A DNA stretch of 64,000 nt from Escherichia phage 241Ecol014PP, in the sequence record OR062943.1, one strand, 5' to 3'. A model generated the notes under the pieces. It worked only from the letters and a program-made list of their open reading frames with translations. It was not told the DNA's origin and did not search any database. Below are positions 19,322 through 62,006 of this stretch, in pieces. Within the stretch, counting starts at the first letter, position 1. The number at the start of each line of letters is the position of its first letter. The translations under genes were made by a program, and so were the position numbers.

Positions 19322-19390
19322 CTCTATCAGTCTCCATATTTAACCAATCTATATTACATATTGCCGAAGAAACAGTATTTCATTTCATCA

Positions 19391-19609: not shown

Positions 19610-19610
19610 A

Positions 19611-19940: not shown

Positions 19941-20111
19941 TTTTTTTTGTTACTCCGTTCTGTATCTGTGATAATGAGAATAGCAAACTGGGGTGTGTGC
20001 TGTCAACAACATTTTTAAGCGTTTTGGGGAAGTTTTTTGAAAGGTGGGTGTAATCACAAGAGAGGGTGGAGTTATTGAAGGCACAGGCCTCTTTTGAGGC
20101 CTTAAAATCGA

Positions 20112-23274: not shown

Positions 23275-23534
23275 TACTCTTCCTCCATAGTTTCACCAAA
23301 TACTTCGATACGAGCATCGAGCTCGGTTGCTTTCAGCTCTCCAACAAAATCTTTTAGTTCTTTCTCGTCCAGATCGTAAGCCCACACACAAGAGGAACAT
23401 GCAGATTTCACAATCAGCAGCGTAGATACACGGCCTGACTCTGTGATCATGCTCACAATGGTTCCCACAGGGAACGTGTTGATAGCTTTTTTTTTAACTG
23501 GGCGTTCAGATTTGATTACTACTTCTGTTGCCAT
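23274..23534 (-). CDS. hypothetical protein
   Basis: 86-aa ORF. Confidence 0.4.
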   Translation of the reverse strand: MATEVVIKSERPVKKKAINTFPVGTIVSMITESGRVSTLLIVKSACSSCVWAYDLDEKELKDFVGELKATELDARIEVFGETMEEE

Positions 23535-36992: not shown

Positions 36993-37757
36993 TTGAAATT
37001 TATCTACAAAGAACACTACCACAAAGGTGTTGTGTGGAGTCTATTTGACGGATCTGGTGGTGCAGTCATTGACTGGGCAAAAGCTGGGTACCTGTGCCTG
37101 TGCTTTAATGCAGAAGGTGCTGATCACGGCAGTTATGCAGAGGTGATAACCGATCATCACAACATTCACTATGTGGATTATTGGATTGACCCATGGTTCC
37201 CTCAGGAAACTTTTTGCATGTACCCAGCTCCAGACTTTATTCTTGCATTTCCTCCGTGCACGCATTTAGCGGTATCGGGTGCTGCACATTTTAAGAAAAA
37301 GCTGGCTAAGGACCCCATGATCCAAATTAATGCTGTAAAGGATGCTCGGGTTGCGGAAGAGCTGGGAGAGATTTACGATTGCCCGTGGCATGTAGAGAAT
37401 CCTGTTGGTGTTATGTCCACACTGTGGCGCAAACCTGATTACCGTTTTCATCCTTCTGACTATGGCGGGTATTTACCGGAGGATGATGTAAACCCCTGGT
37501 TTCCTGAATTTATAGCTCCACGTGATGCCTATCCAAAAATAACTTGCGGCTGGATAGGTAATGGATTTATAATCCCGGCCACAAAACCTGTCCCGCAAAT
37601 AGTTGACGCGGTTAGTGGGTATTCAATGCAACACGCCAAGCTGGGTGGAAAGAGTGCAAGAACGAAGATGATTCGAAGCCTCACACCACGTGGCTGGGCA
37701 AAAGCCGTATTCTTAGCAAACGAGCCTGCAGTAAGGAGCAGAATTAATGGGAAGTAA
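36993..37757 (+). CDS. C5-cytosine methyltransferase-like protein (compact, no obvious target-recognition domain)
   Basis: TTG 36993 after AGGAGA (track ORF starts inside the terminator); motif I LFDGSGGA, motif IV-like FPPCTHLAVSG, motif VI-like HVENPVG. Confidence 0.4.
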   Translation: MKFIYKEHYHKGVVWSLFDGSGGAVIDWAKAGYLCLCFNAEGADHGSYAEVITDHHNIHYVDYWIDPWFPQETFCMYPAPDFILAFPPCTHLAVSGAAHFKKKLAKDPMIQINAVKDARVAEELGEIYDCPWHVENPVGVMSTLWRKPDYRFHPSDYGGYLPEDDVNPWFPEFIAPRDAYPKITCGWIGNGFIIPATKPVPQIVDAVSGYSMQHAKLGGKSARTKMIRSLTPRGWAKAVFLANEPAVRSRINGK

Positions 37758-39825: not shown

Positions 39826-39883
39826 TGTTTAACCAAGAGTGGGAGGGGTAGTACAACCGCCTCCCCTTTAAGGAGAACACTTT

Positions 39884-42800
39884 ATGAGCATGTATAGCTT
39901 CGATTTTGAGGCCTCCGGGCTTTTGGAAGACCCAGATCTTTATTACCACTGCGGCCTGTTTAAAGAGCTGAATAAGAACCGTTTTATGCTGTTCCTCCCT
40001 CTAAATGACCGCACACACTACTCCGAGGAGGATATAGAGAAGGCTAAGAACTTCATTCTGGCAAAGAAAACTCTTTATAAAGATTTTGAAGTTCGCATAG
40101 CAGATTTTTCGGAGTTGGAAGGTTGGCTTACAGGCAATTCCGACTGGTCACCAACAGCTTTGAACTGCCATAACTGCTACAGTTATGACTTTATGCTGAT
40201 GGAGAAATTATCCGGTATTCATTTTGATATGTTCCGTGATCCTAAATGCATGGGTACTATCAACGATCACCAGGTTAACCTGTTCGATACGTTGGCGATG
40301 AGCCGAATCTTGTGGCCTGATCGCCCTTTACCAAAAGGTTGTCCGGACTCTGTATTCAACCCGGTTACTAAGAAAATGCAGCCTGTTGGTGCCCACGGCC
40401 TTATGGCATGGGGCTACGCCCTTGGTAACCAGAAAGTTCAAATTGATGACTGGCGTGATCTTCCGTTGTGGAAGTATGTGGATCGTGTATTCGAGGACGT
40501 TATCATCCAGGAGCTGCTCTGGAAAGAGCTGGTAGCGGAATCAAAAGGTGTATTCTACGGCAAATCTGACATGCAGAACTTTATGTACGATCCTGCCAAA
40601 GAGAAGCCGAAAGGGTTCAAGAAGATCACCTGGAAGAACGCATTACGCCGGGGTATGCTGCAGCACTTCCTGATGGAGCTGCAGGCCCGTCAGGGTGTAT
40701 ACTTCGACATAGATGGAGCTATTGCTTTACGTGACCGTTGCGATGCGTGGATGAAAGAGATCGCTGATCGTGTTGAACCTCAACTTCCTTTAAAAGAGTT
40801 GTCAATGTCTCAGCGGCCCAAGTTCCCTGAAAAGCCGTTTAACCAAGATGGGACAATCTCCAATAATGGTTGGAAATGGTTAAAAGATAAGCTTGGCTAT
40901 CCTGTGGACATGAGTGCTTTAGAGTTCAAAGCCCCGCCTAAGCGAGCATTTACCTCCACAGGAGATGTCAGCAAGATGGGGATAAAATGGTGTGAAGAGA
41001 TGGGCTGCAAAGACCCCGATAAGATGGCTGATTTCTTGAGAGGCTATATTAAGGGCACTTCCACACCACACCCTTTACCTAAAGAGCTGATGGATCAGGC
41101 GATAAGTGATCTACAGCAGAAGCGAATGCCGGACTGCAAGATACCTATGAAAATCAGCAATCAGGACGACATTAAGCGATACCTGATCAGTGCTGGTTGG
41201 CTTCCGACAATGTGGAGAACTAAGGATGTAACTAAAGACAGCAAGAAGAAAGCTCTACCTGATGCAGATGTTGATGCACGAGTATATGCATATATGGACG
41301 AGCTTTTAGAGTCAGAGTATTGTGATCTGATTATCAACTTCTGGAACAAAACTGATGCTAAGTTCCAGACAACCGTGCACAAGTTCCGAAGCTTTCCTAA
41401 CTCCGAAAGGATTAAAAAGGAAGTGTTCGGGAAAATACGTAGAAAAGCCAGAGCACTTATTACTTCTCCGCAGCTGAAAGATACGTTTGGACACCTATGC
41501 CCAAATCTTGAAAAATTGAACGGAGAGATGGCTAAAGATATCGTCTTGTGGTTATCATTGCGAAACCGCAGATCGGTCCTTGATCCAATCAAGGAGGATA
41601 AGGTTGATACTGGTCTTCTTAATCACCCACGTTTGAAGATTGACCATAAGCTTCCTGCTAAAAGTTCTGGGTTAACAAACACTTCCCGACAGAAACACAG
41701 TATTTGTGCAAACATGCCTAAACCATCTCCTAAAGTGGTTATGGGTAAAGAGATGCGTAGTCTGTGGGGTGTTCCTCCAGGATACTTTGAGATCGGTATT
41801 GACGGGTCCAACTTAGAGCAGCTTATCGGGGCTTGGGGTGCCTTTGAGTTCGACAACGGCCTGTATTATGATGTTGTAAGTAACGGCGATGCACACTGTT
41901 ATTCAGGAGATACACAAATTCTCACGGAGAAAGGGTGGGTGAGGTTTGAAGATCTTGATCCGGGAACACAAGTGTTCCAGTACGATCACAACACCTCGTC
42001 GATGAACCTTGTTACTCCATTAAATTACGTTAAGCGTAGTTATTGTGGGGATATGTATCATTTCCACAACAGCAGTGTGGATTTTATGGTTACAGATCAA
42101 CACAGGATGCTGACCGTGGATCACAGAAGCAATAAATTGTTTGAAGATTTGGCAAAAGACCTGAAAGCAGGTAAAGGGTCTAATTCAGGAAGAAGGTTTA
42201 TCCATGCGGCAGAGTTTTATGGGAATACAACCTTATCTCCTGCCCAGATTAATTTGCTTATTGCTATTCACGATGATGGGCACTTGCATACAAATAAGGA
42301 CGGCAGCATCGTGTGCAGGATTCAGGTCGGGAAGGGCAGAAAAGTTGCAACGCTTTTAGATACTTTTTCTGCTCTAAGCCTTAGTTATGTAGAGCAGAGC
42401 GGGAAAACCACAAAAGGGGGCTTACTGGCGAGAAGGTTCCAATTCCACGTTCCGTCCTGGGTATTTGAGTTTTTGGACAGCAATAAGGATTTCACCTACA
42501 ACCTGATGGACCTTGATAAAGAATCTAAAAACCTGTTTATAGCTTCTTTATCTAACTGGGACGGATGGGTATCTTCCGAAGGTGGAAAAGTTGCCTACTA
42601 CTCTCAGTCCGAGTGCAGGAAGAAATCTGTAGAGGTTGTGTCTGCGCTGGCTACTCAGTGTGGTTTACGGAATAATACGGTGGCGATTCACAAAAAAGGT
42701 CGTTCCGTACAGCACAGAATCACGATTGGTAGCAAACAGAGAGCAGGGTTGCTGACACTATCTAAAGAGTCTGTCGAGGTGAGTGGTTCTTTGGTTTATT

Positions 42801-43276
42801 GCGTTACCGTCCCTTCTGGAGCAATCATTGTGAGAAGGAATGGTAAAGTGGCAGTGTGCGGTAACTGTAATAACGCCAAAGCTTACTCTTCTGTAGCAGG
42901 CAAGGAGATTTCCCGTAACGATGGTAAGCCTGTCACGTATGGGGTTATGTACGGGGCACAAAAAGATAAAGTTGCAGATATGCTGGATATCTCCCCAGAG
43001 TTGGGGCAAAGGGTGATCGATGCACTTTGGGATGCCAACCCCGGTCTTAAGGGGCGCAAAGAGGATCTGGAGAAATTCTGGGAAGCAACAGGTAAGAAGT
43101 TTATCTACTCTTTTGATGGTCATGCTATCTGGACTCGATCTAAACACTCTTTACTTAATGCATACCAACAAAATGGTGGTGCATCGCTGTGTGACTTAGT
43201 TGGGATACTCATGCACCACCAAATGGTGAAGCGTGGGTGGTACGATGAAGGTGTTCGTCGTATTATTTATTACCAT
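39884..43276 (+). CDS. family-A DNA polymerase, exon 1 (contains intein)
   Basis: Exo I FDFEASGL; motif A-like IDGSNLEQL; motif B-like RNDGKPVTYGVMYGA; ORF stops 2 codons after the His expected to begin motif C (HDE). Confidence 0.7.
41897..42865 (+). mobile_element. intein (323 aa) within DNA polymerase, putative LAGLIDADG endonuclease core
   Basis: in-frame insert between motifs A and B: starts CYSGDTQILTEKG, block B-like VTDQHRM, ends VYCVTV..NGKVAVCGN with +1 Cys; LLIAIHDDGHL and FIASLSNWDGW candidate LAGLIDADG motifs. Confidence 0.65.
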
Positions 43277-43552
43277 AAATAACATTGTGGCTTCATAGAG
43301 TAATCTATGTCGAATAACCTCTTTAACTGCGGGAAGCCTAAACCTTATGGCAAGGTAATCCGCAACGAAGCGCTCAAAAGAGCGAACGCTCAGAGGCCAT
43401 TCCGAAAGGAAGTAGACCAGCAAGTGCGGTCGAAATGGGAGGATTCCTGTGGTTGCTTATCATAGGAATATGAGATGGTCCGATCCTACGTGAAAACGTA
43501 TGGCTATGCACGTAATGGTGCGGGGTAGCTTAACGACCTACCTGAACTATTG
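43277..43552 (+). mobile_element. group I self-splicing intron (ORF-less) in DNA polymerase gene
   Basis: 276 nt; exon 1 ends ..CCAU pairing with GUGG guide at 43287-43290; P-like CTGCGGGAAG 43327, Q-like AATCCGCAAC 43357, P7 AGACCA 43414 / TGGTC 43476; last nt G; joins H|DE of motif C. Confidence 0.6.
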
Positions 43553-43906
43553 GATGAGTACCAAATTCAAGTCCCTGACACGCCTAAGTATAAGACTGTG
43601 TACACCTTCGACACAATTGAAGAACTGGAAGCATTTAAGGCAGAGCAGGAGGCCAAACTTCATGTGTTTGACGGTCATAAGTACAAAAAGGCACGCAAGG
43701 ATGAGAACGGAAACGAAGTGGTTGACAGAGACGGAAACACGGTGTACGATCCTATCCTGAACGATGACGGAAAGCTTGAACTTATCTGGAGCCCTGTGGG
43801 TGAAATGGTGGTGCATTGCTTCTGGCAAGCTTCTAAAATGATGGGCGTCCCGTTCCAGATCACAGGTGAATACTTGTGTGGGGCTAATTGGGGTAGTTGC
43901 CATTGA
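43553..43906 (+). CDS. family-A DNA polymerase, exon 2 (C-terminal part)
   Basis: begins DEYQIQV (motif C DE), ends GANWGSCH resembling the family-A C-terminus; no RBS or ATG of its own. Confidence 0.6.
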   Translation, partial: DEYQIQVPDTPKYKTVYTFDTIEELEAFKAEQEAKLHVFDGHKYKKARKDENGNEVVDRDGNTVYDPILNDDGKLELIWSPVGEMVVHCFWQASKMMGVPFQITGEYLCGANWGSCH

Positions 43907-43926
43907 TCTGATAAGAGATATTTGCT

Positions 43927-44574
43927 ATGGAAGAATGGAGAAAACTGGTTGGCAGGGAGGCCAACTATGAAGTTAGCAGTAAAGGAAGGATTAAAAGGCT
44001 GTCTTACCTGAGGAAGTACAGTAACCAAACAGGTAAAGTTACTTTCAAAGCTGTCCCTGACAGGATTTTAAAAGGTAGCGTAGACAGTAGCGGTTACATT
44101 CAAGTAAATGTAGATGGAAGATCGGAATTGCTTCACAGGTTAATTGCCGAGACCTTTCTAGAGCCTCCTTCAAAAGAGCTTGTAGAGGAATGTAAGGCAG
44201 CAGGGCTGGACTATGTGCCGATCAATCATAAAGACCATAACCGCCTAAACAATGCTGCTGACAACCTTGAATGGGCCTCGCCTTCAAAAAATGCACAAGA
44301 TGTGGACTACGACTACCATAAAACAAGAGGGGAAAGTTCATACTGTGCAAAACTTAAAGAGCGAGATGTTGACGAAATATTAAAGCTTTCCAAAACAGGT
44401 ATGTCACAGCAAGCTATAGCAGATCTTTTCGGTGTTAATCAGATAACCATTTCCAATATCTTGACAGGTAGGAGTTGGGCATGGTACACTGGGATACCTA
44501 AAACCGCAAGGTGTAAAAACAAAAGGGGGAGATCCCCGAAAAGCATGTCTGAGCAAAATTTCTCTGTAAGCTGA
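43927..44574 (+). CDS. HNH homing endonuclease (NUMOD4-like N-term, HTH C-term)
   Basis: EEWRKLVG..YEVSSKGRIKR N-terminus; INHKDHNRLNN..NLEW HNH core; C-terminal MSQQAIADLFGVNQITISNIL helix-turn-helix. Confidence 0.6.
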   Translation: MEEWRKLVGREANYEVSSKGRIKRLSYLRKYSNQTGKVTFKAVPDRILKGSVDSSGYIQVNVDGRSELLHRLIAETFLEPPSKELVEECKAAGLDYVPINHKDHNRLNNAADNLEWASPSKNAQDVDYDYHKTRGESSYCAKLKERDVDEILKLSKTGMSQQAIADLFGVNQITISNILTGRSWAWYTGIPKTARCKNKRGRSPKSMSEQNFSVS

Positions 44575-44633
44575 TTGTCACTAATGTAAACTATCAACAC
44601 ATGGAAGTGTTGTTGAGCAAAGAGGAGACTTTT

Positions 44634-44918
44634 ATGGTAGTAGAACCAACAAAAACATTTACATCTATGACTATCCCTGTTATTATGCAGGTGGAGTGTG
44701 TTCAGGTATCTCAAGTGTGGCCTGGCACCAAAATCCCAACAGGGCCTGATTTCTTTCAGGTTGGCAAAGTGTACAATGTCTGGAAGGCACCAGATTGTTA
44801 CCCTTTCATTAAAGATGACCGTGGGATGCTGTGGTATCTTGGAAATGATTTGACACTGCACCTTGGGAATGCTATTATTGCAGTATTCAGACTTAACAAG
44901 AAGGAGACCGATCAATGA
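44634..44918 (+). CDS. hypothetical protein
   Basis: ATG 44634 after AGAGGAGA; track ORF begins at 44601. Confidence 0.35.
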   Translation: MVVEPTKTFTSMTIPVIMQVECVQVSQVWPGTKIPTGPDFFQVGKVYNVWKAPDCYPFIKDDRGMLWYLGNDLTLHLGNAIIAVFRLNKKETDQ

Positions 44919-45142
44919 CAACTTTGGTTAAAGCTACTTTTGTAGAAGAAAAGATGACAGACCTGTCCTTCTTTAAAGAAGGAAAGACCTACGAGGTTTA
45001 TTACGATAAAGATCGTGCAAACAAGATGATTAAAGACGAGGAAGGGATTGCCTGGTTTATCTCCCATCTGGCAAACGGTGAGTATCATATCTACGGAACC
45101 ACCCTGCTTGCCAAGTTTGTAGCTGTCGAAGAGGACCTATGA
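44915..45142 (+). CDS. hypothetical protein
   Basis: 75-aa ORF, AAGGAGA RBS. Confidence 0.4.
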   Translation: MTTLVKATFVEEKMTDLSFFKEGKTYEVYYDKDRANKMIKDEEGIAWFISHLANGEYHIYGTTLLAKFVAVEEDL

Positions 45143-45333
45143 AAGTAAAGTATCTGGCTGAGGGCATGAGCAGGTATTTTACCCTTGGTGAAGAATATTG
45201 GCCCTTTACAAACAACGGTGATGTCTACGTGAAAGATAATTTCGGCACGCCGTGGTTTCTGCACTCTAATGGGCTGGGATACTCCATTTACTGCGGTGCA
45301 GTGAACAACACAACTCTTGCAGAGTTCGTTTAG
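45139..45333 (+). CDS. hypothetical protein
   Basis: 64-aa ORF. Confidence 0.4.
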   Translation: MKVKYLAEGMSRYFTLGEEYWPFTNNGDVYVKDNFGTPWFLHSNGLGYSIYCGAVNNTTLAEFV

Positions 45334-45343
45334 AGGAGGTAGG

Positions 45344-45715
45344 ATGTTAGTAAAAGGTACCCACACAGTCAAACAACGTATTGAAGTTGAGATTGATGAT
45401 TGTGAGCTGAAGCATATTTTACGGTCATGCTCCAACGTTTTGCTCCTTAGTATTCTTCAGGAGCGAGCGGAGAACGAGTTCTTAAATGCACTGGCAGGCC
45501 GTCCTGGTGACTTCTGTGTGCGTAAGCGTGGTGACAACAAGTCATGGCTGTGGGAAATCGATGCCGACTGGGATTACCACAAAAATGAGGGTATAGATGA
45601 GCCTATTCGTGAACTGACGGACAAAGAGGTTCAGATGTACAATGAAGTTTGTCAGTGGGCAAAAAGTCAACAAACTTATCTTGATCCTTGGTGGATGATC
45701 GAAAATAGTCGTTGA
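45344..45715 (+). CDS. hypothetical protein
   Basis: ATG 45344 after GAGGAGG; track ORF starts at 45317. Confidence 0.4.
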   Translation: MLVKGTHTVKQRIEVEIDDCELKHILRSCSNVLLLSILQERAENEFLNALAGRPGDFCVRKRGDNKSWLWEIDADWDYHKNEGIDEPIRELTDKEVQMYNEVCQWAKSQQTYLDPWWMIENSR

Positions 45716-45738
45716 CAGGAAGTAAGATTAGATATAAG
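45712..45738 (+). promoter_or_regulatory. sigma70-like promoter (weaker spacing)
   Basis: TTGACA overlapping stop codon, 15-nt spacer, TATAAG. Confidence 0.35.
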
Positions 45739-45791
45739 ATGCTTCACACAAACAGAGCGTTGATTGTTTAACACTTAAGGAGACCGCTAAG

Positions 45792-46046
45792 ATGAAAATC
45801 ATGTTGAAACCAGAGTGCGTTGCAAATGACCGAGCTTTTAAAGATTGCACGCTTGGTGCTATTTATGAAGCCGAGTTTTGTGATAACCCTCTGGTAAAAG
45901 CTCTCCTGGAAGAGGGTGCCCCTTTATCTCAAGAAGAGATTGATGAACTGGAAAACTCAGCCCAGTGCCTTACCTTTAAAGATGATGAAGGAGATTCTGT
46001 CTGGTGCACCGTTAACGAAGTGGTTTTTGTAAAACCTGAACATTAA
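45792..46046 (+). CDS. hypothetical small protein (paralogue of 46110-46370)
   Basis: 84 aa; KPECVANDRAFKDCT and DDEGDSVWCT blocks shared with next gene. Confidence 0.4.
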   Translation: MKIMLKPECVANDRAFKDCTLGAIYEAEFCDNPLVKALLEEGAPLSQEEIDELENSAQCLTFKDDEGDSVWCTVNEVVFVKPEH

Positions 46047-46049
46047 TAC

Positions 46050-46078
46050 TTGACAAGAAAGATGGGACCTATTATAAT
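46050..46078 (+). promoter_or_regulatory. sigma70 promoter, consensus hexamers
   Basis: TTGACA, 17-nt spacer, TATAAT. Confidence 0.65.
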
Positions 46079-46109
46079 GGCCCTATCAAAACGAAAGGGG
46101 ACCACAGTA

Positions 46110-46370
46110 ATGACCAAACAATATCAACGAATTAAAGCCAAGGTTAAGCCAGACTATCTGGAGAAGGACTCTGCTTTTCGGGACTGCACAGCCGACAAAG
46201 TTTACACAGGAGCTGTCCTGTTGAACGATAAACTTGAAGTAGATGTGCTGGGTAAAGAGGCCGTTATCGAGGATGACAACGGTGACTGTGTTTTCTGCAC
46301 CACACGGGAGCTGGAAGTCTTAGAATACTTCGGTGAAATCTTCAACTCCTTAGACGACGAGGAAGCGTGA
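46110..46370 (+). CDS. hypothetical small protein (paralogue of 45792-46046)
   Basis: ATG 46110 downstream of the promoter; track ORF starts at 46050 inside the promoter. Confidence 0.4.
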   Translation: MTKQYQRIKAKVKPDYLEKDSAFRDCTADKVYTGAVLLNDKLEVDVLGKEAVIEDDNGDCVFCTTRELEVLEYFGEIFNSLDDEEA

Positions 46371-46759
46371 TGAAAAATATTTGGGATATTGATATCTTTG
46401 AAGCCTCTAAGCTTGACGGTGCTGATGGAGTTATTATGGTGTCTGATGGCAAGGCAACACTAACTTCTGGAGATATCATCTATGCCTTGGACGAGCTGGC
46501 GCTTCTGAAATCTACCGGTAACACTTTAGAGGAGCGTCTTCAAGGCTTCGCCTTCAAAGAAGGCACAAATACCGCCATGATGTGCACCACACGGACAGTT
46601 CAGGTTGGTAACGGTGTCTATATGATCATTGCTGTGTGTCCTAAATTCAGCAACGTCAATAAAGATGATGCTGACGCTGTCAACGATGGGGTTGTTCTCT
46701 TCGTGGGTGACGCTATGGCAGATCTGATGAATGCAGGAGAAGCAGCAAATGAAGACTGA
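46367..46759 (+). CDS. hypothetical protein
   Basis: 130-aa ORF, start overlaps upstream stop. Confidence 0.4.
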   Translation: MMKNIWDIDIFEASKLDGADGVIMVSDGKATLTSGDIIYALDELALLKSTGNTLEERLQGFAFKEGTNTAMMCTTRTVQVGNGVYMIIAVCPKFSNVNKDDADAVNDGVVLFVGDAMADLMNAGEAANED

Positions 46760-47051
46760 AAACATCACCCCAGCAGGGTTTTTAAAAGTATACCGTGAAC
46801 TGCTATATACTACAGAGGACAGTGTTCTAGAGTATCCAGAATATCTTTTGCTGTATAAGTATCTGCAGGAGGCTGGTGAAAATCTGCCAGTTAGTGCAGA
46901 AGGTGGTCCGAACTGGATATACAGCGCATGGAGAAAGGTTGACATTCTCCCAGATCCAGGTAAAGATATGGTAGTTTGGCAGCTTATCAACAACATCGGG
47001 ATTCCAATCTTTGATGAAGCTGTTAAAATCTATTTTGAACTTGACGATTAA
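46749..47051 (+). CDS. hypothetical protein
   Basis: ATG 46749 after AGGAGAAG; track ORF begins at 46731. Confidence 0.4.
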   Translation: MKTENITPAGFLKVYRELLYTTEDSVLEYPEYLLLYKYLQEAGENLPVSAEGGPNWIYSAWRKVDILPDPGKDMVVWQLINNIGIPIFDEAVKIYFELDD

Positions 47052-47068
47052 TATCAGGAGACCTTAAG

Positions 47069-47314
47069 ATGACTGAAGTAGTTGCTCGCGCAGGACAGAA
47101 AGTACGTTGTGTTGAAGTAGGTTTTGGTGGCAAAGGGTGTCAAAACTTGACTCAAGGTAAGGAATACGCTGTTATTTCTGGTGGTGGCGACGAAAGTATT
47201 GTGTTCGAGGGCCACATCCTGGATGCTGAAAACTTTGAAATCTTTGACGACGATGGGGATCCGATCACCTGCCTGCTGGACGGGAATTGGGGAACTTTCG
47301 AAGTGATTGGCTAA
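47069..47314 (+). CDS. hypothetical protein
   Basis: 81-aa ORF, AGGAGA RBS. Confidence 0.4.
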   Translation: MTEVVARAGQKVRCVEVGFGGKGCQNLTQGKEYAVISGGGDESIVFEGHILDAENFEIFDDDGDPITCLLDGNWGTFEVIG

Positions 47315-47324
47315 CAAATACCTA

Positions 47325-47353
47325 TTGTAATTTACAGAAGGGGATGCTAAAAT
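47325..47353 (+). promoter_or_regulatory. sigma70-like promoter
   Basis: TTGTAA, 17-nt spacer, TAAAAT. Confidence 0.45.
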
Positions 47354-47397
47354 AGTGTCTCCTTCTATGTTGTTCAAATAAAATCGGAGATTCCATA

Positions 47398-47763
47398 ATG
47401 GAACAAATGAACGATCAAGCGTCGGTTGCGATGAACGAGCAAGAACAACCTCAAGAATTTTTCTTAGGGTTAAGTAAAGATCAAGTGTCTCTTTTGCTAG
47501 TGCTTTCTTCTTTCATGGGAAGACTTCAGGAGCTCACACAACAGCCGGAGGCTGAACAATTATTTCAGGCTCTGCGTGAAGAAGAAAAATATCGTCGTTT
47601 GGACTATGCCTTAGGTTGGGTAGCTCAACAACGAGATATGCTGATGGCCCTCTCTGGGACCACAAGTTTTGCAATGGGCCTGTTGGCTCAAGTTCAGGAC
47701 AAATTAATTCAAGCAGGGTTTGCACACACGGCAAACACTAACGAAGAACAAGGAGACAAATAA
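47398..47763 (+). CDS. hypothetical Gln/Glu-rich protein
   Basis: 121-aa ORF; codon choice CTG/CGT-rich. Confidence 0.4.
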   Translation: MEQMNDQASVAMNEQEQPQEFFLGLSKDQVSLLLVLSSFMGRLQELTQQPEAEQLFQALREEEKYRRLDYALGWVAQQRDMLMALSGTTSFAMGLLAQVQDKLIQAGFAHTANTNEEQGDK

Positions 47764-48989
47764 TGAGCGTTATTCAACAATTCGCTAACCCGATGAATCC
47801 GCGTGAAACTGTTTTACTGGCTCACGGCATGATTAAACGCGTCAGCATCAAGCCTATCAAAGGTGCTGATCCTACAACAGGTATTAAAACCACTGTGTGG
47901 CAAGGTAAGAAAATTGAGTCCAGCCACACCATCTCTTTACTGATTTCTGAACTGGATTCCTCTGATAACCTGCTTCAAGGTGGTGAAGAAGTCTGGATCA
48001 GCATGGGTGATAAACTGCTTAAACCGGGTCATCAAGACTCTGTCTCTGTTAAAATTGATGACAAGTGGGAAACCGTAACACCGGGATGGATCGTAAATAT
48101 TCCTTTGAAGGCAAACGAGCATAACGGTAAGACCTATTACAAAGGCTCACTGGCTAAGATGGTCAAGCTGGGTGCAGGAGAGGCTCCAGCAGCGACTCAG
48201 CAGCAAAAACAGCAACAAGGTGCACAATCACAAGGCCAGAAGCAGAAACCTCAGCAGAATGCCAATCAGGACGTTTTACGCATCTACGGTGATGTGACTC
48301 AGATTGTTGGCAACGTGGTTACTGTTAATGACCACAAGATTGGCGAAGGTGCTATGGTTGTCACTGATGAGCAGCTTAAAGACCTGGTGGTGGGTGGTCG
48401 TGTTGCCGCCATTGTTGACAAAGACACCGGAAACATTATCAGTGGTTTCAAAGCCTATCCACCTAAGGCAGAGAACGGCACTCAAGGCTCTGGTGGCAAG
48501 CGTAAATCATCTTACGACCCTATCGGTGTGGAAACGGGGCATAGCATCAATGCGTTGCAGATCATCCTGGATCGCGGGTTTAAGGTAGACGACCCACTGG
48601 GCGTGGCTAAAACACTGCACGTAGTCACCATTGAGCTTAAGAAAGAGTATGCTCAAGCCACCAACCGAACTGAAGATGAAGTAGGTGCCAGTGTCGGTAA
48701 TGCGGTGTTGAACGCTTGTCGCCGTATTGACAAGAAAACGAAAGTTGATGATTTTGCAGCGGCAATTACTGCAGAAGCAAAAGATGTCTTGACTAATCTG
48801 GCTGAACCGTTGTACGATTGGATCAAGAACGGTGCTGGGTCAACCGACCATCAAGAACCTCAGGCTGCCAAACAGGAAGCAGCTCCACAGCAAAACACTG
48901 TAGACGCTCCTCCTGTAAATGATGAGGGAGATGACCCGATGGATCAGAATCCAGCACAGTATGAGTTCGATGACTCGATCCCTTTCTGA
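47763..48989 (+). CDS. SSB-like single-stranded DNA-binding protein with acidic C-terminal tip
   Basis: 408 aa; Gln-rich linker; C-terminus DDPMDQNPAQYEFDDSIPF resembles the bacterial SSB ...DDDIPF tail. Confidence 0.45.
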   Translation: MSVIQQFANPMNPRETVLLAHGMIKRVSIKPIKGADPTTGIKTTVWQGKKIESSHTISLLISELDSSDNLLQGGEEVWISMGDKLLKPGHQDSVSVKIDDKWETVTPGWIVNIPLKANEHNGKTYYKGSLAKMVKLGAGEAPAATQQQKQQQGAQSQGQKQKPQQNANQDVLRIYGDVTQIVGNVVTVNDHKIGEGAMVVTDEQLKDLVVGGRVAAIVDKDTGNIISGFKAYPPKAENGTQGSGGKRKSSYDPIGVETGHSINALQIILDRGFKVDDPLGVAKTLHVVTIELKKEYAQATNRTEDEVGASVGNAVLNACRRIDKKTKVDDFAAAITAEAKDVLTNLAEPLYDWIKNGAGSTDHQEPQAAKQEAAPQQNTVDAPPVNDEGDDPMDQNPAQYEFDDSIPF

Positions 48990-48997
48990 GGTCAGTT

Positions 48998-49576
48998 ATG
49001 AAATGCAAACGTTGTGGAGAGGACAAGGAGGCCTCCGACTTCTACACCAGTAACAAATCAACGTGCAAAGAGTGTTGCAAGAAGGCCAGCAGGGAGGCTG
49101 ACCAATTTGCTAAAGACTCTTCAGAAAAAGGTGTAATACGCGTGCTGTACAAGTCTCAAAAGTGCAACAGCAAGCAAAGAGGTCACCCTCCTCCGACTTA
49201 CACCAAAAAAGAGTTTAAGGAGTGGCTATACCTGAACGGTTACAAAGAGTTGTATGATCAGTGGGTAGCCAGCGGATACGACAAAAGGAAAAAGCCTTCT
49301 TGTGACAGGATAGATGATTTCAAAGGGTACTCTTTTGATAATATCCGTTTAACGACTTGGGGAGAAAATAAAGACAAGCAGACAGAAGATATTCTGTTAC
49401 ATAGAAGCACCAGCGGTAGACGGTGCAAAAATGTAAGGAGGTTGGACATGAATGGTAACGTTCTTAAAGAATGGGTATCCCACAACTCTTGTAGCAGAGA
49501 AACCGGAATATATATTGGTTACTACATTCATGAAAAAATTCCAGCTCCAGATGGATACTTCTATGAATACTTTTAG
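48998..49576 (+). CDS. HNH_3-type endonuclease with N-terminal Cys-rich zinc finger
   Basis: CKRCG..CKECC pairs; PSCDRIDDFKGYSFDNIRLTTWGEN HNH_3-like core. Confidence 0.5.
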   Translation: MKCKRCGEDKEASDFYTSNKSTCKECCKKASREADQFAKDSSEKGVIRVLYKSQKCNSKQRGHPPPTYTKKEFKEWLYLNGYKELYDQWVASGYDKRKKPSCDRIDDFKGYSFDNIRLTTWGENKDKQTEDILLHRSTSGRRCKNVRRLDMNGNVLKEWVSHNSCSRETGIYIGYYIHEKIPAPDGYFYEYF

Positions 49577-49591
49577 CACCTAACTGACATA

Positions 49592-49620
49592 GCCCTGCCC
49601 GAAAGGGTGGGGCATTTTTG
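49592..49620 (+). terminator. rho-independent terminator
   Basis: GCCCTGCCC-GAAA-GGGTGGGGC then ATTTTTG; same hairpin as at 36948. Confidence 0.65.
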
Positions 49621-49638
49621 TATAAGGAGATCTGAAAA

Positions 49639-50055
49639 ATGACATTAGAAGATATCATTGTTAAGCCTGAGAACTATGACCAATACAACCTGTCAACTCA
49701 ATCTGTAGACCTCGGATGCGCCACAGTCAGTGCATGGCTGGTTAACGGAAAAGAGCTTGACGAGTGCCTGGAAGCACACATGTCGGTGAATAAATTCCTT
49801 GATGAAAATACCCACTGGCTAGAGGGTGCAGGAGTATATGCTTCATGGTTGGAGAGTATGGGATTCAACTACCAATCTGAAGAGGGGTGGTGGAGCTATT
49901 TAGCTATCTGCCCAGAGACGCTGCAATGCTTCATGAAATATTCTGAAGATTTGGAGTACCGGGCGGTGGTTGATAGTGCTATTGCCCGTTATAGCCGTAA
50001 ACCTTTTTCCCACGACATTAAAACTGTGGAAGAATTTGTTGAAGTTTTCTGTTGA
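49639..50055 (+). CDS. hypothetical protein
   Basis: 138-aa ORF, AAGGAGA RBS. Confidence 0.4.
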   Translation: MTLEDIIVKPENYDQYNLSTQSVDLGCATVSAWLVNGKELDECLEAHMSVNKFLDENTHWLEGAGVYASWLESMGFNYQSEEGWWSYLAICPETLQCFMKYSEDLEYRAVVDSAIARYSRKPFSHDIKTVEEFVEVFC

Positions 50056-50080
50056 CACAGGTTGAAAGGTGTGCAATTAT
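50052..50080 (+). promoter_or_regulatory. sigma70-like promoter (weak -10)
   Basis: TTGACA overlapping stop codon, 17-nt spacer, AATTAT. Confidence 0.35.
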
Positions 50081-50151
50081 AACTTCATAGAACGGGAGGA
50101 CGTGATGAACGAAGAAAACTGGGATGTATAACTAACAGGAGGCCACTGCCC

Positions 50152-50349
50152 ATGATTTATCGAATCCGTGTAAGAGAAGATGCACCAGGCTGTTACTTTG
50201 ACTGGCGTGGGTGGTGGTTTCTCCACCCGATGGATGGACTCACAGATAGAATGCTGGATGCTGCCCTTTATACAGATACCGATATAGAATATAATCTCTA
50301 TCTGAAGGACGGTATAGATAACGGCCTATTTGAAGCAATTCCTGTGTAA
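50152..50349 (+). CDS. hypothetical protein
   Basis: 65-aa ORF with AGGAGG RBS. Confidence 0.4.
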   Translation: MIYRIRVREDAPGCYFDWRGWWFLHPMDGLTDRMLDAALYTDTDIEYNLYLKDGIDNGLFEAIPV

Positions 50350-50417
50350 GAGACTGTGATAGCTATGTTTTATGATCTTCCTGTAGCGCCACCACCTGTT
50401 GAACCCGGAGAACTAAG

Positions 50418-50843
50418 ATGATCTATGAAATGCCAAAACTGATTCGTGACGATGCCCAAAACGCTCACACCATTATTATGGGCAAACGCATGGATATTAT
50501 TTGTCATAAAGATTTCTGGGAAGGAAGTTACTTCACAGAGTATTTTGGTAAACTGGACAATGGTCTGCTGATCCAGTTCTACACCGATGCGGAAAACAAC
50601 ATTCCCTGGGAGTTCGAAACTGAAGATGTCAATAAACTTTTCACCTTCCTCGGTATTAAGGTTAAGGCCAAGTTTGAAGAAGGTGAGTGCGACGATTGTG
50701 GATTTTATGAGGTAACAGATTTCTACCTTCCTAGCGGTAAGAACCTTTACTATGAAAGCCACTTCGGTAACTCCAATATGCCACAGTGCTGGACTGAGTT
50801 TTTTGAAATTGCGGAAGAGGAGCTGGCTTACCGTGATTATTGA
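50418..50843 (+). CDS. hypothetical protein
   Basis: 141-aa ORF; ends 11 nt inside the macro-domain gene. Confidence 0.4.
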   Translation: MIYEMPKLIRDDAQNAHTIIMGKRMDIICHKDFWEGSYFTEYFGKLDNGLLIQFYTDAENNIPWEFETEDVNKLFTFLGIKVKAKFEEGECDDCGFYEVTDFYLPSGKNLYYESHFGNSNMPQCWTEFFEIAEEELAYRDY

Positions 50844-51291
50844 TACTGTAGAGGGAGATTTAATCTCCCTTTTTAAGAGCGGTGCTGGTCACCTGATCCA
50901 CGGTTGTAACTGCTTCCACACAATGGGCAAGGGTATAGCAAAACAGATTGCCCGTGAGTTTCCTCAAGCACTGTCAGCCGACAAAGAGACTAGATACGGT
51001 TGCCTAAGTAAACTGGGTGCGTTCTCCCGATGGGAGCACTTATCTCCGATAGGTATTGTCTACGGAATCAATCTATATACCCAGTTCTACCCAGGACCTA
51101 ATGCTGAGTATTTCTCAATCCTGAAAGGCTTTGAGCTAGTCAATGAAGTATTCAGCGGATCGACTTTACCATTCTACATCCCTAAGATCGGGTGCGGCAT
51201 AGGCGGTTTGAAGTGGGAACACGTAGAGGACGTTATTAACCTTGCCACTTTCGACATAGATATTGTCGTGGTGGAGTACAAAAAGTGTTGA
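50833..51291 (+). CDS. macro-domain protein (ADP-ribose binding/hydrolase fold)
   Basis: GTG 50833 after GAGGAG; GDLISLFKSGAGHLIHGCNCFHTMGKGIAKQI and IPKIGCGIGGLKWEHV fit macro-domain signature. Confidence 0.55.
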   Translation: MIIDTVEGDLISLFKSGAGHLIHGCNCFHTMGKGIAKQIAREFPQALSADKETRYGCLSKLGAFSRWEHLSPIGIVYGINLYTQFYPGPNAEYFSILKGFELVNEVFSGSTLPFYIPKIGCGIGGLKWEHVEDVINLATFDIDIVVVEYKKC

Positions 51292-51316
51292 CGACCATCT
51301 TCTGAGGTGATATAGT
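51288..51316 (+). promoter_or_regulatory. sigma70-like promoter
   Basis: TTGACG overlapping stop codon, 17-nt spacer, TATAGT. Confidence 0.5.
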
Positions 51317-51345
51317 TTCCACGACAACTAAGAGAGGAGAGCACT

Positions 51346-51516
51346 GTGGAGACTAAAATCTTAATTCTTGCTGTGGTAGATACAACCGAAGGAGCTATAT
51401 TCGAATCTGCAGGAGGGTATTTCTACCTACCATACGGAAAAAGAACTTCCGAGCCAAGTAAAGATTCAATCCTCAAAGTGTTCCCGTGTGCTTTCTGGCT
51501 GGAGATTTTGGTATAA
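51346..51516 (+). CDS. small hypothetical protein (56 aa)
   Basis: GTG after AGAGAGGAGAG, downstream of the 51288 promoter; below track cutoff. Confidence 0.3.
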   Translation: METKILILAVVDTTEGAIFESAGGYFYLPYGKRTSEPSKDSILKVFPCAFWLEILV

Positions 51517-51542
51517 GATTGCAGAGGATTTGGGAGAGAATT

Positions 51543-51737
51543 ATGAGAAACAAGAAAGAACTTTACTCCGGTGAGTGGATCAACGATCAACAGGTGGGAG
51601 AGGTAACCTGCTTCCGATGTTTTACCAGGTACAATCTTAAAACTGCACCAAAAAGTGTTCCAAAGACTGACGGTTACTACATAAAAGAACCTCATTGCCC
51701 AAAATGTAAATGCCGATTGTACTGGAGCAATCTATAA
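51543..51737 (+). CDS. zinc-ribbon protein
   Basis: ATG 51543; CFRC..(24 aa)..CPKCKC pattern; track ORF starts at GTG 51486. Confidence 0.4.
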   Translation: MRNKKELYSGEWINDQQVGEVTCFRCFTRYNLKTAPKSVPKTDGYYIKEPHCPKCKCRLYWSNL

Positions 51738-51741
51738 GAGG

Positions 51742-51769
51742 TTGACATCTGAAAACTGCAGTGTATAGT
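51742..51769 (+). promoter_or_regulatory. sigma70-like promoter
   Basis: TTGACA, 16-nt spacer, TATAGT. Confidence 0.5.
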
Positions 51770-51800
51770 ATACGCATAAACTAACAGAGAGCGATGTATT

Positions 51801-51992
51801 ATGGTAATTTTTAACCGGGATGGTATCATAGTTAGACAGCACCCGTTCCTTGAATACTATCAAATTGAGCAATGGTGCTACGGGGATTGCAGTCACTCCT
51901 ATGGGCAAAGTTGGGGATATCGTACAGTTTTTGAATCAACAGACCTTGACAAAGTAAGACAGAAAGTTTTAGAACTTATTAACAACAAGTGA
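51801..51992 (+). CDS. hypothetical protein
   Basis: 63-aa ORF. Confidence 0.35.
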   Translation: MVIFNRDGIIVRQHPFLEYYQIEQWCYGDCSHSYGQSWGYRTVFESTDLDKVRQKVLELINNK

Positions 51993-52001
51993 GTATGATA
52001 T

Positions 52002-52334
52002 ATGGTAACATTAGAAAGACGTAAAGCTATCGCCGCCACACTGGCAGACATCTTTTGGGATTGCAACTTAAAAGATACCCGAAATTGTGGCGCATCTGTA
52101 GATGTATTATTCCCACGGCCCACCATTGTTGCAATGGGAAACCTGTTAAACGTAGTGTACGGAGCATGGGACAAAGAAGGTGGATTCTATGTCTGGCAAC
52201 CTGACTACGGAGCCTGGAAAGAGGTAAGGGGTGCGGATGACTTTGGGCCTACAGTTGCTAAGATGGATGGCTGGCAAATTTATGTTGGAAACGACATGGA
52301 ACTGAAAGGCGAAATTGTTTACTGGTTACCTTAA
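52002..52334 (+). CDS. hypothetical protein
   Basis: 110-aa ORF. Confidence 0.4.
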   Translation: MVTLERRKAIAATLADIFWDCNLKDTRNCGASVDVLFPRPTIVAMGNLLNVVYGAWDKEGGFYVWQPDYGAWKEVRGADDFGPTVAKMDGWQIYVGNDMELKGEIVYWLP

Positions 52335-52354
52335 GAAAGTGCAGGAGATAAAGC

Positions 52355-52600
52355 ATGAACAAAGAATGGACATTAGTAGACGGCGTTAAAAACATGCCTC
52401 TCGGAAAGTATATCGTAGCCATGACGGATGAGAATGGCAATGTGGATTTCGGAGCTTGCGAGGTTGTTCTTGCAGGATCTGGTAACTACGTGGACAAAAC
52501 TGGGATAATTAACGGTCAGTTCTACTTTGATCACAACCCTGTTGTAGCGTATATGGCTATGCCAGAGTTCAAGCTACCAAAGGAGTGCGCTAATGTTTAA
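52355..52600 (+). CDS. hypothetical protein
   Basis: 81-aa ORF with GCAGGAGA RBS. Confidence 0.4.
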   Translation: MNKEWTLVDGVKNMPLGKYIVAMTDENGNVDFGACEVVLAGSGNYVDKTGIINGQFYFDHNPVVAYMAMPEFKLPKECANV

Positions 52601-52790
52601 GCTAAAATCCGCATGGAACATTGCTGTAGGAGATGAGATCCGCATCCCAGGCGGGAAGACCATTATGAAGATATCTCGTATTGAGTACGAAGGTGACCGT
52701 GTATTCCACATCTTTGCAGAAGATGGTCGAGAAATTTATGTGCAGGCAGGCTCTCACATCTATATCCGTAAGAAAGGAGATGACAAATGA
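52593..52790 (+). CDS. hypothetical protein
   Basis: 65-aa ORF. Confidence 0.4.
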   Translation: MFKLKSAWNIAVGDEIRIPGGKTIMKISRIEYEGDRVFHIFAEDGREIYVQAGSHIYIRKKGDDK

Positions 52791-53113
52791 CAGAGATCAT
52801 CATTTCAACTGCAGGGTATGTATTCCTGACAATCCTTGCGCTGACTATTTTGGTGGTGGTATATGGGATTGTTATTCTCCCTATTCTTGAGACAATTAGT
52901 TTGTGTCGGTGTTGGAGAAAGGCTTACGGTCCACAGCCGTGGAAGGACTGGCCCCACCTGGTGCACATAGCGTTCTCTTATGCCTACGATCACTCTAGCA
53001 GTGCATGCATAACCGGATACCACGCCCACAATTGGAGATGGGAAGGGTTGAGGAAGTGGAATGTTACAAAGACTATACCTCTGCGCATGTACAAAGGAAA
53101 AAGGAGGGATTGA
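52787..53113 (+). CDS. membrane protein
   Basis: 108 aa; long N-terminal hydrophobic segment YVFLTILALTILVVVYGIVILPIL. Confidence 0.4.
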   Translation: MTEIIISTAGYVFLTILALTILVVVYGIVILPILETISLCRCWRKAYGPQPWKDWPHLVHIAFSYAYDHSSSACITGYHAHNWRWEGLRKWNVTKTIPLRMYKGKRRD

Positions 53114-53757
53114 TGGGAATACCTGTTAAAGACAGAAAAATATGTGGTCGTGGAGTAAACGATTTAAAAGACAAAGTCCCAATGTACCAATCTGTTAATG
53201 GTAAGAGAGTACCAGAACCTCACTATGCTACATGGAAAGCATTATTCCAGAGGTGCTACGGCGATAACTCAAAGTACCATACAGGTTGTGAAGTTGTAGA
53301 AGATTGGTGGTTGTTCTCAGAATTCTGGAAATGGATGGATACACAAGAGTGGAAAAGAAACGCTAAGAAGTTCACTCTTGACAAAGATCTGAAAATCCCC
53401 GGAAACAGAATATACTCCCCAGAAACATGTATGTTTGCTCCACCACAAATAAACACCTTATTTGGCATAAGACAGGCAGCACGAGGGGATTTACCTTTGG
53501 GTGTGACACTTAGAAAAGATGTAAACAAGTACCTCGTGCATTGTCATCAAGATGGAAAAATTGTTCATGGTGGTCATTTCGCTGATCCGCAGATAGCACA
53601 CAAGGTGTGGCAAGAAATGAAACTTGAGGAGATGAAGCTTCAAGCTATTAAAAACAAAGATGAGATTTGGCTGTTCGCCATTAAACGTGCAATAACTATC
53701 CTTGAGAATGATTTGAAAAATAATAAGGAGACTATAACATTGGTGAAATTTATTTAA
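53113..53757 (+). CDS. HNH_3-type endonuclease
   Basis: ATG 53113 after AAGGAGGG; Trp-rich region then TLDKDLKIPGNRIYSPETCMFAPPQIN core; track ORF begins at 53005. Confidence 0.5.
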   Translation: MGIPVKDRKICGRGVNDLKDKVPMYQSVNGKRVPEPHYATWKALFQRCYGDNSKYHTGCEVVEDWWLFSEFWKWMDTQEWKRNAKKFTLDKDLKIPGNRIYSPETCMFAPPQINTLFGIRQAARGDLPLGVTLRKDVNKYLVHCHQDGKIVHGGHFADPQIAHKVWQEMKLEEMKLQAIKNKDEIWLFAIKRAITILENDLKNNKETITLVKFI

Positions 53758-54085
53758 GATATTTATGGTAGTATTTATTTTAAAATTATAAAAATTTTAG
53801 GTGATGAGGGAAAATATGTAATGGATTTTCCCTTATTTATCAGATATTTGCAGATATTTGGAAATCCTTAGAAAATCAGAAAATGGATCGAAAACTAAAA
53901 TGGATTTTTCAGGGTAGACACGATGAGCTGAACCACTCATCCTATCGTTTGCGGCATATTCCGGACTACCATTCCAGATTTTCCGCGTATGCTCACATCC
54001 TCCTACTAGAACTTCCCCCACTTATCCTTGACCTTTTATGGTAATAATATAACCACTATCTTGAAGTTGCGGTGCAGCTTTCCAG

Positions 54086-61719: not shown

Positions 61720-61743
61720 CAACGTTTTAAATTAGTTTAAGAT
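61716..61743 (+). promoter_or_regulatory. sigma70-like promoter
   Basis: TTGACA overlapping stop codon, 16-nt spacer, TAAGAT. Confidence 0.4.
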
Positions 61744-61793
61744 GTATCACGTAGGGCGGCAATGGTGCCGCTCACAACTGGAAGGAAAACACC

Positions 61794-61997
61794 ATGACTA
61801 CAGCTAACCGCCTGATCGCCGTCCTGAACAAAGCAAAGGCTAACCGCCTGGATGTTCAAATCAAAGAGCAAGCAAATGGCGAGATCCTTGCTACGGTGTC
61901 CGATGGCGGTTATGTATCGGAATCATTTTTATCAGGGAGCTTAGATCATCTTGTTTGGAAATTAGAAATTATCGTGGAGGATATGCAGATCATCTAA
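61794..61997 (+). CDS. hypothetical protein
   Basis: 67-aa ORF with GGAAGGAAA RBS. Confidence 0.4.
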   Translation: MTTANRLIAVLNKAKANRLDVQIKEQANGEILATVSDGGYVSESFLSGSLDHLVWKLEIIVEDMQII

Positions 61998-62006
61998 TCT
62001 TTACAA

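Follow-up and report, generated by a model that had tools for sequence, protein, structure and literature searches.

The window analysed here is a stretch of 64,000 nucleotides (nt) from Escherichia phage 241Ecol014PP (record OR062943.1), in which a primase/helicase gene (37747-39825) is followed by a family-A DNA polymerase gene and then by a series of small genes. An earlier sequence-only reading had placed a set of four free-standing HNH-type endonuclease genes around this replication module, and all four open reading frames (ORFs) were found where it had put them: 43927-44574 (here HNH-1), 48998-49576 (ORF2) and 53113-53757 (HNH-3) on the plus strand, and 25044-26087 (ORF4) on the minus strand. 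The set did not survive as a single class. The first three are mobile-type genes at fixed sites, so that the general idea of that reading holds for them, and we consider it probable that they are three unrelated free-standing genes of homing-endonuclease type that have settled at gene ends or intergenic sites of the replication module. ORF4, by contrast, is a core gene resembling Srd of phage T4.

By megablast and by the gene maps of its relatives, the window belongs to an rV5-like myophage of Escherichia coli (genus Vequintavirus). Searching with positions 39000-54000 returned 139 phage records, about 120 of them rV5-like E. coli myophages with 91-96% identity, and none was collinear with the window throughout this region. 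Presence/absence polymorphism, which the sequence-only reading had itself put forward as a test, was found for the three plus-strand ORFs but not for ORF4, which is present in 117 of 117 matching records. The profile searches that it had also proposed bore out an HNH assignment for HNH-1, the only one of the four to score above the Pfam HNH_3 cut-off, but not for the other three, which have no Pfam or NCBIfam nuclease match at E = 10 and owe their labels of HNH or endonuclease VII to PHROG families only. A tblastn search with all four proteins found no extra nuclease paralogues in the window.

HNH-1 at the 3' end of the polymerase gene

HNH-1 (43927-44574, plus strand) is a free-standing homing endonuclease gene of the I-HmuI/MobE type. 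Its product matches Pfam NUMOD4 (34 bits, cut-off 23.4) and HNH_3 (28.5 bits, cut-off 24.8), carries a C-terminal helix-turn-helix (HTH) and matches PHROG 59 at 3.8e-37. The match to I-HmuI itself (1u3e) has an E value of 0.004 and only 20-30% identity, but the catalytic residues are spaced in the same way (H..NN..N..N), with INHKDHNRLNNAADNLEWASPSKN of HNH-1 aligned opposite VDHKDGNKDNNLSTNLRWVTQKIN of I-HmuI. Like mobE of T4 (PMC2790892), HNH-1 follows a conserved replication gene, stands beside an intron and is insertion-polymorphic; mobE, however, is located in the nrd genes, whereas HNH-1 lies 3' of a family-A polymerase gene.

Set against about 116 relatives, the DNA of HNH-1 occurs in a single other record, phita32, with 97.4% identity, and it is absent from five of six comparators (rV5, YP-6, Mangalyan, HeinrichReichert and WalterGehring). 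No further carrier was found by an IMG/VR protein scan, by an exact-protein look-up, or by searching metagenome and viral contigs for a 24-nt pattern of the recoded junction described below.

Homology to the genomes that lack HNH-1 restarts at 44573, with the last three codons and the stop codon of their polymerase gene. This relic of the ancestral polymerase 3' end, GATTGTCACTAA, lies past the HNH-1 stop codon at 44573-44584 (plus strand), as established by comparing the junction with genomes free of the endonuclease gene. Since homology restarts 12 nt before the polymerase stop of those genomes, the insertion point falls within the polymerase ORF, 12 nt short of its end. The HNH-1 cassette brings a substitute end for the polymerase gene, AGT TGC CAT TGA. 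The last nine codons including the stop (43880-43906) are recoded, nine of these 27 nt differing from rV5 (GANWGSCH* vs GSNWGDCH*); phita32 is identical to the window here, and the recoded end is found only in these two carriers of HNH-1. Upstream of about 43865, both exon 2 of the polymerase gene and the intron that precedes it are of the ordinary rV5 type.

Homologues of HNH-1 with 48-52% identity were found by tblastn in other genera. We inspected three of their loci, in Klebsiella phage K54_rec1, Salmonella phage SPLA5a and Vibrio phage PWH3a-P1, and in all three the homologue immediately follows the polymerase gene on its 3' side. The K54_rec1 polymerase gene has two HNH-bearing introns, while those of SPLA5a and PWH3a-P1 are uninterrupted. 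A more distant homologue (26% identical), the HNH+HTH gene CB7_48 of the Certrevirus CB7, is likewise free-standing and directly 3' of the polymerase gene. We also considered a K54-like donor for the recoded polymerase end of the window, but by eye this end agrees with the K54 type at 19 of 27 nt and with the rV5 type at 18 of 27, and no donor can be named.

Because the gene is tied to the polymerase 3' end across genera, regardless of introns, and because that end is recoded and split in the carriers, the target of HNH-1 most likely lies at the polymerase 3' end. With its target split and recoded in this way, a carrier would be immune to its own endonuclease. There is no strong promoter directly upstream of HNH-1; a single match to 10 of 12 consensus positions, about 180 bp upstream and inside exon 2, is probably due to chance.

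The polymerase intein and intron, and possible homing in trans

The polymerase gene that HNH-1 adjoins is interrupted twice, and the intein and the intron that the sequence-only reading had mentioned were both confirmed. All parts of the gene lie on the plus strand, and the intein falls within a 1132-codon ORF at 39884-43282. Exon 1 begins with the N-extein (39884-41896), identified by PHROG 17 and 8888 and by tblastn with the uninterrupted polymerases of SPLA5a and PWH3a-P1. The intein (41897-42865) has 323 amino acids (aa), starts with Cys, ends in GN and is followed by a +1 Cys, its limits being set by intein-less relatives and by the uninterrupted polymerases. Support for its Hint domain is weak but specific (Pfam Hint_2, E 7e-5; AceL NrdHF intein, E 1.8e-4), and as judged by eye it appears to carry LAGLIDADG-like motifs of its own. 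Six records in total contain the intein; among the comparators it is present in YP-6 and Mangalyan and absent from phita32, rV5, HeinrichReichert and WalterGehring. The C-extein (42866-43276) ends in ...IIYYH, the first part of motif C, and its first nine codons are recoded, reading CNNAKAYSS in the window (42866-42892) and QNNAEAYTK in intein-less alleles. These 27 nt, which include the +1 Cys required for splicing, are a footprint at the intein homing site.

The group I intron (43277-43552) contains no ORF and splits motif C as YYH|DE; exon 2 follows at 43553-43906. The intron scores 64.7 bits against Rfam RF00028, for which the gathering score is 50. We set its limits by joining positions 43077-43276 to 43553-43752 and comparing this 400-nt query with the relatives. 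The query is contiguous in intron-less relatives and is interrupted by exactly 276 extra bases in carriers of the ORF-less intron, which places the intron at 43277-43552. Of 60 records sampled evenly from the 116, 29 were intron-less, 13 had the 276-nt ORF-less intron, two had a 328-nt form and 16 had a long form; the polymerase alleles of Murica and JES2013 are intron-less. In the long form, a 507-nt HNH ORF takes the place of positions 43342-43410 of the window within the same intron, and it is this form that is found in Mangalyan, HeinrichReichert and WalterGehring.

Given this neighbourhood, HNH-1 might act not on its own insertion site but on that of the intron, as the sequence-only reading had suggested in proposing that the gene serves intron or intein homing in trans. 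HNH-1 would then cut intron-less polymerase alleles at or near YYH|DE, the ORF-less intron would shield its carrier, and the two would spread together. Trans homing has precedents in mobE/I-TevIII (PMC2790892) and F-CphI/psbA (PMC6083498), and the layout of the window is the same as theirs, the host gene containing an ORF-less intron and being closely followed by a free-standing endonuclease gene (PMC6083498, PMC2790892, PMC3984707); HNH-1 starts 20 nt past the polymerase stop codon, exon 2 ending at 43906. With no intron in their polymerase gene, roughly half of the relatives could serve as recipients. Both carriers of HNH-1 have the ORF-less intron, and the HNH protein encoded inside the ORF-bearing version of the same intron is 33% identical to HNH-1 (E 1e-13).

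The distribution of the two elements, however, does not follow this scheme. An identical intron is present in about 22 records without HNH-1, so endonuclease and intron do not co-occur across genomes, and two carriers with one common junction give no statistical association. The homologues in SPLA5a and PWH3a-P1 adjoin uninterrupted polymerase genes whose motif C amino acids are identical, and the introns of K54_rec1 bear HNH genes of their own. Furthermore, exon 2 and the intron remain of rV5 type to about 40 nt before the insertion and therefore were not imported with HNH-1, while the insertion has left its single sequence footprint at the polymerase 3' end, with none at the intron site. The DHDH...R...N motif of F-CphI and T4 endonuclease VII is absent from HNH-1, and intron-site targeting of the F-CphI kind is unsupported in the window. 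As for the intein, it seems, as noted above, to have LAGLIDADG-like motifs of its own. Thus, we regard trans-mobilisation of the intron by HNH-1 as possible but unsupported and, on balance, unlikely, and we do not favour a role in trans for either element. With a target at the polymerase 3' end, HNH-1 could at most carry the ORF-less intron along by co-conversion, the intron lying some 375 bp upstream.

ORF2, HNH-3, ORF4 and other insertions

ORF2 (48998-49576, plus strand) is a free-standing gene for a putative endonuclease with an N-terminal zinc ribbon, a core resembling that of the restriction enzyme R.PacI (D103, R104, Y111, N124) and an I-HmuI/NUMOD1-like DNA-binding tail. Upstream lies a 408-aa gene, and ORF2 separates the stop codon of that gene from its terminator, an intrinsic hairpin at 49592-49613 (plus strand) that directly follows the upstream gene in genomes where the site is empty. 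ORF2 has no Pfam or NCBIfam match at E = 10, Endonuclease_7 included, and its label comes from PHROG 1035 ('endonuclease VII', 3.4e-32). In a family alignment of 39 members, P100, S101, D103, R104, Y111 and N124 are invariant, 15 members match Pfam I-HmuI_NUMOD-like and 11 match NUMOD1. The family profile aligns with I-HmuI over both the catalytic core and the C-terminal DNA-binding region (E 2e-4), and with PacI over two short stretches, the N-terminal Cys4 ribbon and VDRSD..GYS..N (E 3.3e-4; E 0.03 with the single sequence).

The gene is found in 51 records of about 115 relatives and is missing from some 64 (∼56%). When an even sample of 60 relatives was searched with a joined-flank query, 35 sites were cleanly empty, which accounts for every unoccupied site in the sample; that of YP-6 was resolved to a single base. 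The 200-nt flanks of ORF2 (48775-48974 and 49571-49770) fall into two haplotypes that match the presence or absence of the gene almost perfectly, with 95-98.5% identity to the window at occupied sites (93.7% in one record) and 88-94.6% at empty ones. This pattern would fit co-conversion and also simple linkage. Two alleles of the gene, differing from 48998-49062 of the window, were seen among the relatives: the 579-nt form of the window, which has its own start past the upstream stop codon, and a 624-nt form, in rV5 and others, which overlaps a longer upstream gene and has a zinc-ribbon loop 7 aa longer.

Such a distribution is difficult to reconcile with the name that ORF2 bears in many GenBank records and in PHROG 1035, by which it would be a Holliday-junction resolvase of the T4 endonuclease VII type, acting in DNA packaging or recombination. 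A gene with that role would not be expected to leave a clean empty site in more than half of close relatives, and the tail of ORF2 is of the NUMOD1/I-HmuI, sequence-specific type. The signature of the endonuclease VII/F-CphI family is CX2-4C...DHDH...R...CX2C...N (PMC6083498). ORF2 has neither a DHDH motif nor a Pfam Endonuclease_7 match; its family reads DRIDD, with an invariant R at the His position and no later CX2C, such that the D-H-H-R-N residues are replaced by D-R..Y..N. We therefore think a resolvase highly improbable, and the 'endonuclease VII' label of the ORF2/rV5 gp208 family is probably wrong.

HNH-3 (53113-53757, plus strand) is a free-standing gene for a putative nuclease. Although the ORF as delimited mechanically begins at 53005, the relatives are homologous only up to about 53096, and at 53113 an ATG preceded by AGGAGG overlaps the stop codon of the upstream gene; the start chosen by the sequence-only reading is thus the right one. 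HNH-3 has no Pfam match, and no NCBIfam nuclease match at E = 10; it matches PHROG 953 (1.9e-62), 374, 2081 and 3377, all labelled HNH. It is present at full length in only three records (YP-6, SYGMH1 and the short EC22.5-2 contig), the other relatives having about 100 nt instead at the site, which in rV5 is the spacer between gp195 and gp194. Its family is nonetheless large, with 9071 cluster representatives at E <= 1e-3 in an exhaustive search. Among 50 members, Y38, W41, R47, W65, F71, W74, D90, K91, D92, Y101, C106, N114, G130 and A162 are invariant.

The C-terminal half of HNH-3 is an AP2 domain, as shown by the match of the family profile to the AP2 domain of WRI1 (E 9.7e-6) and by Pfam AP2 matches in 13 of the 50 members. 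By hhalign it aligns, over the AP2 portion only, with the HNH_3-AP2 genes bas51_0076 of WalterGehring and bas58_0074 of HeinrichReichert, which are also free-standing, polymorphic and of the same genus. The N-terminal domain, however, sets HNH-3 apart from these genes. It has its own signature, D90 K91 D92..Y101..C106..N114, which belongs to no Pfam family, and neither HNH-3 nor any of the 50 family members has an HNH_3 or HNH match. Comparisons of this domain with a PacI fragment, with the ORF2 and ORF4 profiles (E 0.01-0.03, probability <5%) and with the HNH_3-AP2 proteins were all non-significant. Thus, apart from the PHROG labels and a match to phrog_3377 that it shares with ORF2, we do not claim that it has an HNH fold. 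In that match the two proteins are in the same register, and the Y-to-N spacing of D-K-D...Y-x12-N is that of PacI and ORF2, a likeness that is suggestive rather than proof.

ORF4 (25044-26087, minus strand) is the first gene of a leftward block, at a divergent junction. It is annotated among the 117 records, in all of which it is full length, as an anti-sigma factor, an anti-termination protein or an HNH endonuclease, and it matches PHROG 3118, 4592 and 1400. Its N-terminal domain, which appears PacI-like and derived from a His-Me finger, is followed by an acidic linker and a C-terminal domain, and residues E76, R77, Y84 and N97 are invariant. By hhalign, the N-terminal 120 residues match T4 Srd (92%, E 6.5e-7), and the N-terminal domain matches the nuclease domain of the ORF2 family (92%, E 7e-7). 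The ORF4 profile found no nuclease match in the PDB, and its link to PacI runs only through ORF2. Like Srd, ORF4 is an early-region gene, and it is conserved in every relative; its product exceeds Srd by about 100 aa and has a long acidic linker, and the C-terminal domains of the two differ. Because it is present in 117 of 117 records and homologous to Srd, ORF4 is not a mobile endonuclease. Srd of T4, which is annotated as an anti-sigma factor or sigma-70 decoy, is reported by Qi et al. (2015; cited in PMC4980113) to stimulate host RNase E, a function known only for the T4 protein. ORF4 itself is a conserved early core gene on a nuclease-derived fold, probably with a role in host takeover.

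Other differences between the window and its relatives were seen away from these genes. Positions 19349-20069, absent from HeinrichReichert and YP-6, are another accessory insertion, not recognisably a nuclease; on the minus strand they contain two small ORFs, 19391-19609 and 19611-19940, neither of which has a Pfam match. Three further stretches have no counterpart in HeinrichReichert: 2027-2821, in the tail-fibre region, 23287-23523, and 61722-62001, which contains a 67-aa ORF (61794-61997). None of these four regions could be recognised as encoding a further nuclease. Among the small genes downstream of the polymerase, positions 46050-46078 on the plus strand form a sigma-70 promoter with 12 of 12 consensus positions (TTGACA, 17 nt, TATAAT). 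No tRNA genes were found in the window. Finally, 16 GenBank records (MG0656xx) titled 'Campylobacter phage' are about 95% identical to the coliphage-type genome over the whole region, which is likely a matter of host mislabelling or contamination.

Probable homing without introns, and a possible PacI-type core

Insertion at gene ends, co-orientation with the neighbours, the lack of a convincing promoter and strong polymorphism between nearly identical genomes are the textbook signature of intronless homing (PMC3984707). HNH-1, ORF2 and HNH-3 are all co-oriented with the genes around them and have only weak promoter consensus matches nearby. With no obvious promoter of their own, they would probably be expressed by read-through from the upstream gene. 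In a mixed infection, the endonuclease would nick or cut the gene-less allele of a related phage near the empty site, and recombination-dependent repair would copy the gene with some of its flank into the cut genome, which would amount to intronless homing and also to local marker exclusion. The exclusion of related phages, which the sequence-only reading had offered as an alternative function, is plausibly this same process viewed from the side of the phage that loses.

Systems of this kind are already documented on a larger scale in the same subfamily, Vequintavirinae. Pectobacterium phage CB7 has 23 such genes, several of them in or around its polymerase gene, which contains two introns and is flanked by free-standing HNH genes (PMC7344957). 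Compared with CB7, the window has fewer elements, and it has an ORF-less intron, a polymerase intein and two genes that are not canonical HNH. In closer relatives, extra HNH_3-AP2 genes occupy positions left vacant in the window, in the helicase-polymerase gap of WalterGehring and the dcm-helicase gap of HeinrichReichert. Given these further genes before the helicase and the polymerase of sister Vequintaviruses, the replication module is a genuine hot spot.

Several points weigh against reading the three genes as active homing endonucleases. Their cleavage activity and target sites are predictions from sequence. ORF2 and HNH-3 lack the canonical catalytic His as well as a Pfam nuclease match, the link of the HNH-3 N-terminal domain to nucleases of solved structure is non-significant, and the AlphaFold2 models of HNH-3 (mean pLDDT 49, from a 7-sequence alignment) and ORF4 (46, from 9 sequences) are too poor for use, with only the AP2 part moderately confident. 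HNH-1 is known from two genomes with one junction between them, so that its spread by homing within the genus is conjectural. Presence/absence with linked flanks, moreover, can arise by ordinary recombination or deletion, with no active homing.

The missing His admits two explanations. The first is that ORF2, HNH-3 or both are no longer nucleases but DNA-binding proteins that linkage preserves, having decayed or been domesticated, whether as regulators or as relics of earlier invasions. The absence of a general-base His and of Pfam nuclease matches would agree with this, and ORF4 and Srd may illustrate the same domain in a non-nuclease role (for the function of Srd, PMC4980113). In addition, ORF2 has already reached a frequency of 44%, a stage at which decay of the endonuclease is expected (PMC3984707). 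The pattern of conservation speaks for the opposite: D, R/K, Y and N are invariant across the 39 and 50 diverse members of the ORF2 and HNH-3 families, at 31-40% identity, which argues for selection on an active site. The frames of both genes are intact and have good ribosome-binding sites, and the Tyr-for-His variant represented by PacI is catalytically competent (PMC4081073, PMC5714182). Decay of these genes is therefore, in our judgement, unlikely.

The second explanation is that the His has been replaced. PacI is an active enzyme of the HNH superfamily in which a loop Tyr stands in for the general-base His (PMC4081073, PMC5714182), and its metal is bound by Asp and by Asn113 (PMC3996161). 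D103, R104, Y111 and N124 of ORF2 have the spacing of PacI D92, R93, Y100 and N113, of which we infer Y100 to be the catalytic tyrosine. ORF2 shares with R.PacI (PDB 3ldy/3m7k) an N-terminal Cys4 ribbon and a VDRxD..GYS..N..(x8)N core, although the statistical support for this similarity is modest; ORF4 and Srd bear E/R..Y..N with equal spacing, and SLERFD..GY..N of Srd has its counterparts in ORF4, ORF2 and PacI. The two kinds of protein also differ, in that R.PacI is a homodimeric restriction enzyme of 142 aa without a NUMOD tail, whereas ORF2 has an I-HmuI-like tail of the monomer type and behaves as a mobile gene. It is conceivable, and we put it forward tentatively, that ORF2, the HNH-3 N-terminal domain and ORF4/Srd are all PacI-type His-Me fingers with a loop Tyr for the catalytic His.

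While intronless homing is a known kind of system, this apparent spread of a Tyr-based, PacI-type variant of the HNH fold among mobile phage endonucleases and into Srd is the less ordinary thread. A 2017 classification treated the PacI class (group 20) as tiny, mostly of giant viruses and without a Pfam family (PMC5714182), and we found no mention in the literature examined of a likeness between Srd and PacI-type His-Me fingers. If the assignment is true, the PacI-type core would be among the commonest catalytic cores in free-standing mobile endonucleases of tailed phages, the HNH-3 family alone having >9000 cluster representatives, and a mechanism could be assigned to a large family of phage proteins that is now unclassified. 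Srd of T4 would in that case descend from such an endonuclease, having been exapted and having lost its mobility.

For the rV5-like phages, which are widely isolated and used in therapy and biocontrol, the value of these results lies mainly in annotation and in the understanding of mosaicism. The label 'HNH endonuclease', which the Srd-like gene sometimes bears, hides what is probably a conserved host-takeover function, and the recoded polymerase 3' end beside HNH-1 offers a concrete candidate target site. If the three genes are indeed intronless homing elements, most differences in gene content between the replication modules of rV5-like isolates would reflect gain and loss of selfish elements rather than functional divergence.

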